Part shown: positions 24,001 through 30,000 of the stretch, in pieces
How positions within the stretch are numbered: position 1 is the first letter of the stretch
Layout of the letters: every line of letters begins with the position of its first letter
NCBI GenBank assembly: GCA_963810935.1
Contig: CAWEPK010000003.1
Location: 111,622-175,621 of the forward strand
Source of the DNA: an uncultured delta proteobacterium
Lineage (GTDB): Bacteria > Desulfobacterota > Syntrophorhabdia > Syntrophorhabdales > WCHB1-27
Direction of reading: 5' to 3'
DNA: 64,000 nt
Made by a program: the position numbers

Positions 24001-27000
24001 CGAAGGGTTTTTTTGGCCAGGGCGCTGGCGAGTGAGCCCGACGTGCTCCTCCTCGACGAGCCGACCAACCATCTCGACATCACGACTATCCTCTGGCTCG
24101 AAAAATTCCTGCTGAAGTATGAAAAGACATTCATGTTCGTGACCCACGACCGCGCGTTTCTCGCGCGCCTGGCAACGCGCATAGTCGAAATCGACAGGGG
24201 ACGCCTCTTTTCCTTTAGCTGTAGTTACGGTACCTATCTCGAGCGACGCCAGGCCCTCCTGGAATCCGAAGAAAGGCAGGCCCAGGAATTCGATAAAAAG
24301 CTCGCCAGGGAAGAGACGTGGATCAGGAAAGGGGTAAGGGCACGCCGTACGCGCAACGAGGGCAGGGCGCGCGCATTGATGCAGATGCGCGAGGAGCGCG
24401 GGCGCAGGCAGGAGCAGGCAGGCGTCTCGCGACTGGTCATCCGGGAAGCGGAACGGAGCGGCCGGATGGTCGTCGATGCGGAGGGGATTTTCTTTTCGCG
24501 GGGCGACAAAAAGATAGTGAAACAGTTCTCTACGACTATCGTCCGGGGAGACAGGGTCGGCATCATAGGACCCAACGGCTGCGGCAAGACGACCCTTCTC
24601 AAGTTACTGCTCGGCGACATCGAGCCTGCCAGGGGAAAGGTCCGCCTGGGCAGCGGGGTCAAAATCGCCTACTTTGACCAGCTCCGCGAACAACTGGACG
24701 AGAACAAGACGCTCAGGGAAAACATTGCCGACGGCAACGATACCATCATCACGGGGGACGGCTCGCTCCACGTGGTAGGTTACCTTCAGGATTTCCTTTT
24801 TTCGCCCAGCCGGATCATGTCGCCCGTCCGTACCCTATCAGGCGGCGAGCGCAATCGCCTGCTGCTCGCGAAGCTCTTCGCCGTCCCATCGAACGTGCTC
24901 GTCCTTGACGAGCCGACGAACGACCTTGACGCGGAAACGCTCGAGCTGCTCGAAGACCGGCTCCTACTCTACAAAGGCACAATCCTGCTGGTCAGTCACG
25001 ACCGTGAGTTTCTCAATAATGTGGTGACCTCTACGATTGTTTTTGAAGGCGACGGGCGGCTGCAGGAGTATGTGGGTGGTTACGACGACTGGCTCAGGCA
25101 GGCCCAGCCCCCGGTTGAGCCGTCGAAACCGCCTGCACCGAAGGACCGGGACGAGAAGAGGGGAAAGCCGCCGAAGGAGAAACAAAAACTATCCTATAAA
25201 GAGAGCCGGGAGCTGGAAGCGCTCCCTGAGACAATCGAATCCATGGAAGAGGAGAAGCGGCGCCTGGTCGCGACCCTGAACTCCTCTGAATTCTATGCGA
25301 GTTACGACGCCGCGAAGTTGAAGGGAGTCAACGACCGGCTTGAGGCGCTGGAAAGGGGGCTGGACGAGGCCTATCACCGGTGGGACGAGCTGGAAACTTT
25401 GGTCGTAAAATTCAGCGAAGACCAGAGATGATAAAGAGACGCACCCGCGGGAGCCTTAAGAAATCGCTCCGGCAATGGAAGCTTGATATATAATACTGAA
25501 GAAAGGATGCCGCTTGATCAACATTTATGTAGATGCCGATTCCAGTCCCGTTAAGAACGAGACCGTCAGGGTGGCCAAACGCTATGGACTTAAGGTCTAT
25601 TTCGTTTCCAACAACCCCAGGATGAGGGTCCCTGAATACAAATTGGGTGAAGTGGTAGCGGTTAATGACGATTTAGACGCAGCGGACGACTGGATCGTAG
25701 AGCATATTACCGCGAACGACGTGGTGATATCGGCTGATATTCCCCTGGTTGCGCGGTGCATCAAAAAGGAAGCACGAGTCCTCGATCCCAGGGGACGCGT
25801 CTTCACCGAAGAGTCGATAGGAGACGTGCTGTCACGCAGGGACATTATGACTTTCCTGCGGGACACGGGGAACCGGGACACGGTCAGCCGGGCGCCTGCC
25901 TACGATAAGAACGACCGCTCCCGTTTCCTGCAACGCCTGGACGATCTGATCCAGGCAATCCGTAGAGAAAGGGGAAACGACACCGGCAACCAACCGTCGG
26001 ATACCCCCAATCAAGAAGTCGGGGAGAACACGTCAAAAGGTAAGGCCGGCAGCGCAGTCGAGGAATGCTGATCGGCGCCCTCTTTCAGGTCCCCAAATCA
26101 TTACACAAACCGTGCTTTTGCTCTGCCCCGGCCGCCCGGCCCGATTGCCACTTGTAAACGGTTCCCCTTTTATTTACAATAGCGTATGTTCGTGACCGAC
26201 GGGGAATCGAATTACGATAAGGTCTGCGCGGAGCTGCTCGTTCTGGTCGATAAAGAGGGCGCGGCTGCGAACGCGCCGGCGCTCGACGGGAGCCTGCACG
26301 AAGGCTTTGCCGCCATGCCGCTGTTCGGCCGTGACTGCATCGTCCGTCCGGACGGAGTATACATGAACGGGCAGAAGGTAGACTTTATGGGCGCCATCCT
26401 TATTGCGCGCTACCTGCTGCAGGCAGGCAAAGAGCCCGTCGGCCAAACATGGCTGCCGTATAGGGACTTAAAGGACGGCGGCCAGTTCTCTTCATTCATA
26501 AAGGCTAATATTGAGGACAAGATAGCGCGGATGTTCGGCGGTAACCGAGGGCTCCTGCACGTGCGCCTGAGCGCCCTCGGGGCAGTGGCGGCGCCGGACG
26601 GCATACGCGGAGACATCGCCCTGGTGCTCCATCCTCTGCCCCTTTTGCCCGTGCTCTGCCTGTTCTGGGACTCAGACGAGGAGTTCCCCGCTTCGTTCCA
26701 GTTCCTTTTCGACAAATCCGCCTCGTCGTACCTCGACCTGGAATCGCTCGCAGTAACGCTTCAATATATCTACCTGAAGGTTACCGGGGAAGCATGATAA
26801 AGGTCCTTATCATCGATGACGAGCATGCCATCCGCGAGAGCCTTTCCTCTATATTGAGCGACGAAGGGTTCGATGTCTTATCGGCCCGCGACGGCAAAGA
26901 GGGACTTGCCCTTTTCGAGAAGGAGAAGCCCCGCGTAGTCCTCCTCGATATCTGGATGCCGGAAATGGACGGGCTTGAGGTGTTGAAGCTCGTCCGCGAG

Positions 27001-30000
27001 ATGGACCACGAGGCGGTAGTTATCGTCATATCAGGCCACGGCACGATCTCGACGGCAGTAGAGGCAGTCAAGATGGGCGCCACCGATTTCCTCGAAAAGC
27101 CGCTATCGATCGACAAGGTCCTCGAAGTGATCAACAGGGGCCTTGCAGGAAAAGGGAACGGCAGAGAGAAGACGGGCGGCAAGGTGCGGATCGAGATCGC
27201 AAAGGGCCGCCAGGCATGCAGGCAGAAAACGGTCGGCAAAAGCATCGTCATGTACGGGATGGGCCTCTTCTCCGGCGTAAAGACGGGCATTATCCTCCTT
27301 CCCATGCCGCCGGACACGGGTATTATCTTCGAGCAGGTGCCGGAGGGCGAGCGCATACCTGCCTTCATCGATTACGTCTATTCGTCGGGAAACGCCTCCT
27401 CGATAAGGGGGAAAAGCTGCACCATACGGACCATCGAGCACTTGATGGCTGCCTGTCACATGTACGGCATCACGAACCTCCTCGTCAAGGTGAGTGATGA
27501 AGTGCCCATATTCGACGGGTCTGCCCGCGAGATTTGCACCAATATAGAAGAAGCGGGCATAACGGAGCAGAACCAGGGCATAGAGCCGCTCGTGGTCGGC
27601 GAGCGCGTCGAGCTTCCGAACCTGCCGGGCGACAAGTACCTCTCGATAGAGCCGGCCGAGGAGTTCGAGATCGACTATACCCTGGACCAGCCGCGCCCCA
27701 TAGGCAAGCAGAGGTACGTATTCAAAGGGGGCAAAGAGGCCTTCCTTCGGGAGATAGCGCCTGCCCGCACTTTCGGCTCGATAAAGGATTTCGAGAGGCT
27801 CGAAAAGATGGGCCTTGCGGCGGGGAGCCGCGTCAGCAGCGTCATGAGTAACGTCATTCTCCTCAACAACGAGGAGGTGATCAATACGGAGTCGAGGTTT
27901 GCCGACGAGTTCGTGAGGCACAAGATCCTCGACTTGATCGGAGACCTCTACCTTGCCGCCCGCCCCGTGATAGGCAAGGTAATTGCCCGCCAGACGGGGC
28001 ACCTCGAAAACATCGCCCTCGTAAAACGGCTGAAAGCCGGTTACTGACACTGATTTTTTGTCTCGCGCGACGATAAGACCTGTCTCGCGCGAAGAGACAA
28101 ATATCTCTCTTCGCAAGACGGTCACAAAACACCTTTCCCTGTAAAACCCCGTCCTGACTTAAGCGCCCCGCCCGGCAGCCTATGGCACACTTATTGTAAT
28201 ATCCTCAGTTTCAACCACAATCTTTTAATAGAGGTAAGTACATGAAAAAACGGGTAATTCTTGTCGTCTGTCTTTGCCTGCCGCTGGTGCTTCTCTGCGG
28301 CCGCGTCTTCGGCGACGGGCCGGGGAAGGACGGATGTGGACCCTTCCTGCCGCAAGGGGAGGCGCACAATCTGCTCAAAGGTACACTCAGCGAAATGCGC
28401 CTGACCGCAGGCAAGCCTGCAATGAATGAGACGGCAGGCGCCTACTATCTGGCGGTAATGATCCCCTATTATGAGGCATGCATACGGCTGGAGCAGCAGG
28501 CGGCCCGCTTCAGCGGCGATACCGGCCTCGTAGCCGCTGCCCTCGACAAATCGCTTGCGGACGAGTTGCTCCTCGGGCGCCTGAAGACGTGGGGGCAGGC
28601 GGGTTCGTACGACACGAAACTCAGCGGCAGCTCGGCCGGCTCCTTTATGGACCTGATGAGGGAGATAAGGGAGACTGCGTGGGATGATATGTCTCCCGCC
28701 CTGTCCGACAGGAGCGCCGAGCGCTCCTTTATAACGGTCATGATTGCCTATGCCCAGGGGGCCGCCGATATGGCGAAGGTGGTGATGATCTTCGAGTCCG
28801 ACGACGAGCTGCGCTCAATCGCGCAGCATGCGATCACGCTCCAGCAGGCAGGCGTCCGCTTGATGCAGTCATATCTGAAAAAGTAGGACAGGATCCCATC
28901 CCCTAGGACCCTTTTTTTCGCTTCTTTGCCTTTCCCGGCCCTACGTAGGGGTCCATGCCCTGGCAGCCGAGGCATGAATCTCCGTCCGCTGCCGGGTAGC
29001 TCTCGCCGCAGACGGGACAGACGGCGAACGTCCCCCTGTGGTTCTTTTCCAGTAAGCTGACCGGAACTTCTATAGCGCGCACTCCGCAGATATCCCCCGC
29101 CGCCTCGCCGATCTCTTTGAGGAGCAGACCGAAGTCCTGTTCCTTCTTCGACTTGGTCTTGAAGAACCAGCCCTTGATCTCCGGCCACTTATCGAGCCTG
29201 GCCGGGTCTATGAAGACGCGGACGCCAATGCCTGTCGATTTCTCGTACATGCTCAGGGCGTAGCGCCCCAGGTTGATGATGGCGAGCCAGCCGTTCCCGA
29301 TCGTGCAGGGGGTGAGGAGCTGAACGGCGTCGGGCAGGCACTTCGGCGTCTCGCACAGGGCGTTATAAAGTTGCTTATCCGGCAGGTGCCGGTACGCGAG
29401 GTCCACCATGTAGCCGCCGATAAGCACCCCCGGCGCAGGGTAACTATGGAACTCGCGGACACGCTCTATAAATTCGTCATATGTATACGAACGGATTTTC
29501 TCTGTCATGGCAGACTATTCTAACGCCGATTGACCACGGGTGCAATAACCCCGCGATAGCAGCCTGACGCAGTCCTATCTGCACGAGACGAAGCGGATCT
29601 CGTTGGCGGAAGACGAGAGGACGTCGCCGATCAGTCCCACAGCTTCCGCTATCTGCTCGTCCGTATTGCCTAGCCCTAAGGAGAAGCGCAGCGAGCAGTG
29701 GGCCTCTTCCTCGGTCATGCCCATCGCGACAAGGACGTGGGACGGCTCGGGTGAGCCAGATTTGCATGCCGAGCCGGAGGAGAAGAAGACGCCCCTGGCA
29801 TCGAGGGCAAGTAGGAGCGATTCTCCGCGGACGCCCGGCAGGGTCACGTTAAGCGTATTGGGCAGCCTTCTTTCAGGATGGCCGTTCAGCCTGGCGCCGG
29901 GGACTATCTTTTGGATGCCGTCAAAAAGGGCATCCCGCATCCCGGCTACGCGGCCGCCCATCTGCGAAAGGCGCTCCGATGCAAGCAGCGCCGCCCTACC

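Follow-up and report, generated by a model that had tools for sequence, protein, structure and literature searches.

In an uncultured delta proteobacterium of the class Syntrophorhabdia, LpxC is joined in frame to an NtrX-type phospho-receiver domain, and judging from sequence, control of lipid A synthesis seems to have moved from the lpxC gene to the LpxC enzyme itself. LPS synthesis is controlled mainly at LpxC, which is also a target for antibiotics. What is new here is a matched switch seen in genome comparison: sigma-54 and palindrome motifs together with an intact NtrX accompany the unfused lpxC, and both are almost always missing where lpxC is fused.

Results

The window, i.e. the whole stretch of 64,000 nucleotides that was analysed, contains the fusion gene and the following parts of it.

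26794..28047, + strand: REC-LpxC fusion gene, 417 aa plus stop, no internal stops
26794..27144, + strand: NtrX-type receiver domain, residues 1-117 (Pfam, alignment, structure match)
26815-26820, + strand: receiver acidic pair D8, D9 (alignment)
26947-26949, + strand: predicted phospho-acceptor D52 (alignment)
27031-27033, + strand: receiver S80 (alignment)
27088-27090, + strand: receiver F99, aromatic switch (alignment)
27097-27099, + strand: receiver K102 (alignment)
27145..27219, + strand: variable linker, residues 118-142, weakly conserved, low model confidence
27220..28044, + strand: LpxC deacetylase domain, residues 143-417, with a short C-terminus (Pfam, alignment, structure match)
27247..27537, + strand: residues V152, G165, I167, H222, Y224, K232 and C248, conserved in fused but not in unfused LpxC

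The reading frame is confirmed to be an intact receiver domain joined to an intact LpxC: Pfam places Response_reg at residues 4-113 (108 bits, cut-off 30.2) and LpxC (PF03331) at residues 144-414 (248 bits, cut-off 27), and TIGR00325 lpxC matches the protein with 213.6 bits, over its cut-off of 187.25. According to tblastn and a PF03331 search this is the sole LpxC of the genome, so that the preliminary description of the only LpxC as a 417-residue in-frame fusion is borne out by reading frame, Pfam, TIGR00325 and tblastn alike. Contigs from four DNA runs of one study, which may itself be the source of the window, carry the gene with neither indel nor joint, no single contig spanning the whole of it. 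PF00072 and PF03331 occur together in all 120 listed best homologues, as had been described; the motif counts given at that time (109 for the Asp and 113 for the EH motif) were too low, since the alignment shows D52 in 118/120, with a gap at this position in the remaining two rows, and E215/H216 in 345/345 fused rows. The linker is the variable part, with a mean identity in 66 close homologues of 41% (residues 118-141) as against 79% for the receiver and 71% for LpxC, a pLDDT below 50 at residues 120-134 of the AlphaFold model, and a length of ~37 to 79 residues across the fetched loci. Annotation pipelines label the fused proteins plain LpxC or NtrX.

The receiver retains the complete canonical set of phospho-receiver residues (D8, D9, D52, S80, F99 and K102). 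Among fused rows, which range down to about 31-50% identity, D52 is kept in 343/345, K102 in 344/345 and S/T80 in 345/345, and nine key residues of both domains are all present in 342/345. Among the NCBIfam receiver models the domain scores highest with NtrX (131.5 bits, residues 2-131), and REC-LpxC alone makes up the top tier for a stand-alone NtrX-like receiver profile in 88/96 class genomes; both results agree with the receiver type first proposed. In a structure search the Brucella NtrX receiver (4d6x) reached Z 21.3, a value equalled by many other receivers. The short fusion has no AAA+ or HTH part and its 131.5 bits compare with a cut-off of 600 for whole NtrX (NF051870); "NtrX" therefore means NtrX-like throughout, as the stand-alone Desulfobacterota protein itself scores 531 against that cut-off, with GAFTGA kept.

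On the enzyme side, residues E215, H216, T326, H376, D380 and H403 correspond to E. coli E78, H79, T191, H238, D242 and H265, so that the zinc ligands (E. coli H79, H238, D242) and the catalytic E78, T191 and H265 are all present, and the fold matches 3nzk with Z 37.9 (rmsd 1.5 Å over 270 residues). We infer deacetylase activity from the sole LpxC copy and from lpxA, lpxD, lpxB, lpxK and waaA, all found in this genome. After the HKxLD motif the fused forms have 42-55 residues, compared to 60-81 in 22/24 unfused Desulfobacterota LpxC, which indicates that a C-terminal tail was lost with fusion; short tails also occur in many unfused LpxC of other lineages.

Those fusion-specific residues that lie on strands 151-156, 163-170 and 229-233 would together make up a docking patch, predicted to face outwards on the domain I sheet. 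This putative patch is common to long and short fused forms; two REC-less proteins (P0290, P0291) also bear the residues, which may alternatively reflect the shared ancestry of one clade. Two single-chain AlphaFold models built from non-overlapping alignments reach pTM values of 0.89 and 0.83, exceeding the 0.67-0.71 expected for free domains, a ceiling that comes from our own arithmetic. Together, the models and the patch suggest that the receiver docks on LpxC. Direct-coupling analysis of the 345 fused rows, with an effective depth of only 97, gave buried residues as its top inter-domain pairs, and structure searches returned no solved chain spanning both receiver and LpxC.

Of 96 genomes of the class that were searched, 85 have one stop-free match over both domains, 80 of which reach residue 413 or beyond, 4 have partial or split matches (G085, G029, G033, G028) and 7 have no match covering LpxC. 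This reproduces the earlier figure of 89/96 order genomes (85 whole plus 4 partial or split), and the listed rows of this search include no unfused lpxC. The fusion clade takes in the class as a whole and, beyond it, 89/386 sampled phylum genomes by score; it also has named members in Nitrospinota, Tectomicrobia and one Spirochaetota record. Short REC-LpxC and long NtrX-LpxC forms, previously noted in other families, were found again independently. In a scan of named genomes with a long fusion as query, 4/79 loci were fused and the others were generic sigma-54 regulators by match range. Apparent triple kinase-receiver-LpxC fusions (open frames of 934-1354 aa, L062-L064) were rejected, because what they overlap is ntrY, read in a different frame.

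The fused LpxC form one group against 24 unfused LpxC (SH-aLRT 100 in both trees; the tree used is a quick tree). The fused type also includes members without a receiver. We do not conclude that the AAA+ and HTH parts were lost several times independently: the trees need 3-5 changes, yet a single short-form clade is not rejected (p-AU 0.525). The direction from long to short is assumed from the ease of deletion. All genomes compared are kin and not independent samples.

The switch is seen first in the regulator. Intact NtrX is present in 11/11 unfused genomes with ntrY (one being the query's own) versus 1/50 fused genomes, in a test limited to 26 candidates for each genome. Long NtrX-LpxC fusions have GAFTGA in 0/132, Walker B DE in 3/132 and the Walker A Lys in 129/132, whereas stand-alone NtrX has GAFTGA in 17/19 and Walker B DE in 19/19. 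The upstream regions show the same pattern: a sigma-54 motif precedes lpxC in 22/24 unfused Desulfobacterota versus 2/43 fused loci (background 5.8%), and an 18-bp palindrome in 22/24 versus 0/43 (at most 8/24 in shuffles), 10 of these 24 unfused loci having been picked because lpxC adjoined ntrY, an order shared by 3/10 unselected ones. Held-out unfused lpxC have the sigma-54 motif in 17/20 and the palindrome in 14/20, both motifs being missing in the 2 genomes of this set without ntrY. From motifs and co-occurrence, unfused lpxC is most likely driven by NtrX from a sigma-54 promoter with a palindromic enhancer. The genome studied here retains rpoN and 21 GAFTGA-like ORFs, indicating that the loss of the motifs at lpxC is gene-specific.

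Directly upstream of the fusion lie two further features.

26186..26797, + strand: DUF3786 gene, overlapping the fusion start by 4 nt
26152..26180, + strand: sigma-70-like site before the DUF3786 gene (9/12, consensus match only)

The 300 nt before the DUF3786 gene and before the fusion gene contain no sigma-54 motif, and the 18-bp palindrome is absent at 25700-26800. The DUF3786 gene is probably co-transcribed with the fusion gene; it stands beside the fusion in 17/30 class loci, all in the window's own family, and is thus not a core part of the system. A search for the LapB zinc ribbon gave one short hit, the same family being hit in 10/14 controls including Gram-positives.

The kinase described earlier as an orphan NtrY (g02785, C10:342356-344557) is real and NtrY-like: it has 733 aa, the order HAMP-PAS-HisKA-HATPase and His522, and is the only match in this genome to an NtrY orthologue (E 2.7e-110). 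NtrY orthologues have the architecture NtrY_N-HAMP-PAS-HisKA-HATPase; NtrY_N (PF19312) was matched in 3/3 orthologues tested and not in this kinase at E 0.001. Outside the class, ntrY lies directly upstream of 11/21 short and 4/8 long fusion loci, and in Nitrospinota of 4/4, so that its designation as likely partner, originally drawn from whole NtrX-LpxC fusions, is stronger than stated. In this genome REC-LpxC heads the 84 hits for an NtrX-type receiver (154 vs 121 bits), as NtrY does the 62 kinase hits (243 vs 144). Gene order and ranking thus make NtrY the likely partner of REC-LpxC. Within the class, no receiver is found within 1.5 kb of ntrY in 30/30 loci, and as ntrY is unlinked there, the pairing rests on orthology. 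ntrY is present in 91/96 class genomes and in 88/89 fused-clade genomes outside the class, but also in 367/401 unfused genomes, so that its presence by itself does not establish a link with the fusion.

Discussion

We propose that in the ancestral state the NtrY kinase and the sigma-54 activator NtrX would have driven lpxC transcription, and that one fusion event would have placed LpxC on NtrX, after which activator functions, promoter and enhancer would have been lost. The short form would have shed its AAA+ and HTH parts while keeping the receiver phospho-site. The unlinked NtrY would then add phosphate to D52 or remove it, and the receiver would alter deacetylase activity directly from its docking site, a new surface on domain I of LpxC. 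That NtrY phosphorylation directly switches LpxC activity in a remnant of an ntrX-lpxC fusion is, from the comparisons above, rather probable. The earlier conclusion that lipid A synthesis is wired for direct two-component control is supported in part. The wider proposal, in which a membrane kinase switches LpxC via the attached receiver on a new allosteric surface and living genomes keep the stages from sigma-54 control through a dead-activator NtrX-LpxC to REC-LpxC, we regard as evenly balanced. As to sign, our guess leans slightly towards the phosphorylated form being more active.

NtrY might instead phosphorylate the receiver to set the amount or location of LpxC (through protease access, dimerisation or membrane recruitment) and not its catalytic rate. 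The available text of PMC12444477 describes proteolysis of LpxC in E. coli and membrane localisation in Neisseria, a tail was lost with the fusion, and the patch common to long and short forms could bind another partner; this reading is nevertheless unlikely, as the pTM of both models points to contact within the chain and many unfused LpxC of other lineages are also short-tailed. Less probable again is a receiver acting as tether or phosphate sink, which would hold LpxC at NtrY or modulate the kinase with LpxC indifferent to D52: the invariant phospho-site and kinase-facing residues point to selection for kinase interaction and not for an effect on LpxC, but the class has no other NtrX-type receiver for NtrY to signal to, and the loss of promoter and enhancer would leave lpxC without its inferred ancestral control. 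That the receiver is an inert passenger is very improbable, even though in long fusions the AAA+ part has itself decayed to a remnant, REC-less members exist and, with a single origin of the short form not rejected, retention need not have been repeated, because D52, K102 and S/T80 stayed near-invariant while AAA+ motifs decayed and the orphan ntrY was retained across the class.

If direct switching by NtrY is true, lipid A flux would be a dedicated NtrY output in these lineages and LpxC a one-enzyme readout of NtrY sensing; the built-in phospho-switch would offer a soluble two-protein system for testing direct allostery, and the predicted promoter and enhancer of unfused lpxC are a regulon prediction in their own right. 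A 2025 review, in its accessible part, states that very little is known about LpxC regulation outside Proteobacteria, and the corresponding part of a 2026 review treats allosteric LpxC control as an open question (PMC13333357). Neither fusion nor phospho-control of LpxC is mentioned in the accessible portions of PMC13333357 and PMC12444477. We found no description of a REC-LpxC fusion in the literature covered, with subscription journals, older response-regulator output censuses and bioRxiv supplements largely outside it and a passing mention possible.

Among known systems, NtrY/NtrX of alphaproteobacteria (Brucella NtrX 4D6X, 5M7N) resembles the fusion in receiver type and in the architecture of the kinase orthologues; its output, however, is DNA binding with AAA+ and HTH parts, whereas that of the fusion is an enzyme and the short form has neither part. 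In CheB, PleD/WspR and RpfG a receiver is also fused to an enzyme and phosphorylation is expected to switch the output; these are signalling enzymes, whereas REC-LpxC acts at the committed, usually essential step of a biosynthetic route. In Rhodobacter, loss of NtrYX raises the lpxC transcript 8.8-fold, indirectly, according to the accessible part of PMC7240162.

Another known system is Desulfovibrio DVU2931/DVU2934 (Dde_3000/Dde_3003), for which the available portions of PMC3333781 and PMC4045070 report a sigma-54 response regulator that targets lpxC only and a kinase mutant that raises lpxC. This system is dedicated to lpxC but transcriptional and unfused. Its regulator carries the label ntrX in Table S1. 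The HTH of DVU2934 and its 15-bp site differ by eye from the HTH and 18-bp palindrome of the ntrY-linked regulator, and the 11 ntrY loci scanned contain no HD-GYP motif, although an operon with REC-PAS-HD-GYP would be expected of an orthologous system. Orthology was dropped on account of the differing HTH and sites, and DVU2934 is, on sequence, probably an analogue. By eye, the ntrY-linked HTH and palindrome resemble DVU3023/LurR, whose LurS is by description a hybrid PAS kinase, unlike NtrY. LpxC tolerates fusion, as in LpxC-FabZ/FabA (bioRxiv 2025.10.16.682753, accessible part), and a bound protein can alter its activity, as reported in parts of PMC13333357 and PMC12444477 for LapB/FtsH in E. 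coli and MurA in Pseudomonas; compared to these, the regulator in REC-LpxC is covalently attached and predicted to be phosphorylatable.

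Results

The only lpxC of the genome

No second LpxC was found in the genome of the window (G000), which bears out the preliminary description of its sole LpxC as a receiver, with its phospho-Asp, fused to the full enzyme:

26794-28047, + strand: REC-LpxC ORF, 417 aa

Receiver (residues 4-113) and LpxC (residues 144-414) both exceed their Pfam cut-offs, and the protein also passes that of TIGR00325. The phospho-receiver residues D8, D9, D52, S80, F99 and K102 are kept, as are E215, H216, T326, H376, D380 and H403 of the enzyme, which align with the E. coli LpxC residues named in passages of PMC13333357. 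Among the other lipid A genes, lpxD, lpxA, lpxB and waaA lie on contig C12 at 30-37 kb and lpxK on C9. Window positions 27892-27893 read TC (Ser367); all four DNA runs read CT (Leu367), Leu367 stands in 8/8 homologues shown, and the Ser367 codon is probably an assembly error or a rare allele.

Two other genes of the window are:

29575-32964, - strand: 1129-aa ORF adjoining an FmdE gene
22069-22836, + strand: 255-aa ORF with no Pfam match

By its motifs, the former would combine a molybdopterin oxidoreductase with a NifS/IscS-like cysteine desulfurase; the latter, with its GS...DVD pattern, is presumably nucleotidyltransferase-like.

Spread and ancestry of the fusion

The fusion had further been held to be the lpxC of nearly all Syntrophorhabdales, and a single stop-free match over both domains was indeed present in 85 of the 96 Syntrophorhabdia genomes; it was partial or split in 4, and 7 gave no match covering LpxC. 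At G028:C18:242398-243626 the gene is divided in three and contains a stop and what look like frameshifts; this may be an assembly error.

LpxC is present in 377/401 genomes of our Desulfobacterota sample, and 89 of the 386 sampled genomes outside Syntrophorhabdia belong to a group whose matches score high and lie in long open frames. Thirty loci fetched from these 89 comprise 21 short forms (REC-LpxC), 8 long forms (REC-AAA+-HTH-LpxC) and one cut by a contig end. REC, sigma-54 AAA+ and LpxC occur together in all 120 listed of 127 longer homologues, whose source names include Nitrospinae and Tectomicrobia, while short forms are named from Spirochaetota (one) and Nitrospinota (one). Quick trees place the fused LpxC domains in a single group, apart from the 24 unfused domains included (SH-aLRT 100).

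Two lpxC matches each occur in genomes G383 (loci L086, L209) and G125 (L087). Besides an unfused lpxC-ntrY-ntrX locus, G383 has a REC-LpxC that is diverged and sits on a long branch, a useful case for asking if the fusion moves horizontally. With the queries used here, neither lpxC nor ntrY was matched in nine genomes of family f41 (G168, G229, G259, G288, G315, G341, G366, G390, G413), all 99-100% complete. Lipid A synthesis and the kinase may have been lost together there; in G132, also of f41, both genes are present.

NtrY as probable partner and loss of NtrX

Outside Syntrophorhabdia, 11/21 short and 4/8 long fusions are immediately preceded by a gene for an NtrY-type kinase, as are 4/4 Nitrospinota long fusions; where ntrY is unlinked (L201-L208, L210, L211), no regulator adjoins it. 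Within the class, ntrY is present in 91/96 genomes, usually between pgeF and smpB, and no receiver gene lies within 1.5 kb of it in the best 30 loci. With a profile restricted to stand-alone regulators that neighbour ntrY, REC-LpxC is the best of 84 receiver matches in G000 (154 vs 121 bits), and it forms the top tier (150-165 bits) in 88 of the 96 class genomes, the next tier reaching at most 134 bits. A kinase profile ranks C10:342356-344557 first of 62 matches (243 vs 144). These rankings and the gene order elsewhere agree with the earlier proposal that this orphan NtrY, with four predicted membrane segments, HAMP, PAS and His522, is the likely partner.

Scoring at most 26 candidates per genome, we found an intact stand-alone NtrX (at least 59% identity) in 11/11 unfused genomes with ntrY, 0/3 without it and 1/50 fused genomes, the exception being G383 with its unfused locus. 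Since NtrX is nearly absent from fused genomes and present in unfused ones with ntrY, gene content indicates that the fusion takes its place, with the caution that ntrY is common in the phylum (367/401) and the compared genomes are kin.

Loss of sigma-54 motifs

Stand-alone NtrX keeps GAFTGA in 17/19 and Walker B DE in 19/19 proteins; the long fusions have them in 0/132 and 3/132, with the Walker A lysine in 129/132 and a complete receiver site in 132/132. Proteins that have lost these motifs cannot activate sigma-54, and the long fusions are thus unable to activate such transcription; they may still bind DNA.

Sigma-54 motifs (at least 8/10 positions of the consensus, within 300 nt upstream) precede 22/24 unfused lpxC genes, 10 of the 24 being from loci selected for adjoining ntrY, versus 2/43 fused genes, whose upstream DNA is often coding because many lie inside operons (background 5.8%). 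In fused genomes the motif is missing upstream of all 28 ntrY genes. The same unfused regions also yielded an 18-bp palindrome, TGT-N12-ACA (22/24 unfused, 0/43 fused; shuffles mean 2.5, maximum 8/24), which precedes 1/18 ntrY genes of fused operons and 1/29 Syntrophorhabdia genes. In unselected unfused loci, lpxC adjoins ntrY in 3/10. Of 20 held-out unfused lpxC genes, 17 have the motif and 14 the palindrome (shuffles mean 2.3, maximum 8); the two held-out genomes without ntrY had neither, as set out beforehand.

At three lpxC-ntrY-ntrX loci (L264, L265, L266) NtrX has no clean GAFTGA and lpxC neither motif nor palindrome, a further way of leaving sigma-54 control that involves no fusion; the stand-alone NtrX of L213 likewise has no clean GAFTGA. 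G000 still carries rpoN and 21 GAFTGA-like ORFs.

Possible receiver docking and proposed mechanism

Several residues are specific to fused LpxC and absent from unfused LpxC: V152 (326/345), G165 (344/345), I167 (310/345) and K232 (341/345); C248 (339/345), H222 (326/345) and Y224 (318/345) are further fused-LpxC residues. Of 49 unfused representatives, 37 have E or D at position 232, and polar residues predominate at 152, 165 and 167. In the AlphaFold model the first four residues belong to strands 151-156, 163-170 and 229-233, and they would point outward because the LpxC helices are sandwiched between the sheets (passages of PMC13333357). The models, both with a disordered linker, gave pTM 0.89 for the window protein (86 alignment rows) and 0.83 for that of L079 (49 rows chosen from outside the close homologues of Syntrophorhabdia); by our own arithmetic, freely moving domains are expected to give about 0.67-0.71. 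Together with the fusion-specific residues, this suggests that the receiver docks on LpxC. The residues can alternatively reflect shared ancestry of the clade, and two REC-less proteins have the same ones.

We consider it fairly probable that NtrY, a membrane kinase, would set the phosphorylation state of D52 and that the docked receiver would alter LpxC activity. That the receiver instead governs LpxC stability or location seems unlikely, and its service as a tether or sink more doubtful still. Nine key residues are kept jointly in 342/345 distinct fused sequences, a gathered set in which close kin are over-represented, and across 66 close homologues the mean identity is 79% for the receiver, 71% for LpxC and 41% for the linker; an inert passenger is very improbable. 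Phosphorylation usually turns sigma-54 activators on. In D. alaskensis, lpxC was raised in a kinase mutant (passages of PMC4045070), which fits a kinase working as a phosphatase. For control of LpxC through D52, our guess, only slightly favoured, is that the phosphorylated form is the active one.

Discussion

REC-LpxC is real and widespread, a variant of the response regulators with enzyme output that appears not to have been described before. The genomic evidence points to a shift of lipid A regulation from promoter to protein. In the portions of the literature searched we found no description of it, and the passages of PMC4114195 and two preprints hold no LpxC fusion with a receiver.

In alphaproteobacteria, NtrYX lowers lpxC transcription, according to parts of PMC7240162 and PMC12444477. 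As excerpts of PMC3333781 have it, D. vulgaris DVU2934, labelled ntrX, targets lpxC alone, and the orthologous operon of S. fumaroxidans lies just downstream of lpxC; sections of PMC4045070 and PMC4641369 are in accord. At L262:12551-15248 (G352), two genes between ntrY and ntrX, by eye REC-GGDEF-EAL-like and HDOD-like, echo the c-di-GMP gene of the DVU2931-2934 operon. By eye, the HTH and 18-bp palindrome of the present loci resemble those of DVU3023/LurR (passages of PMC6456213), unlike the HTH and 15-bp site of DVU2934, and because of this difference we provisionally regard the DVU2934 system as an analogue.
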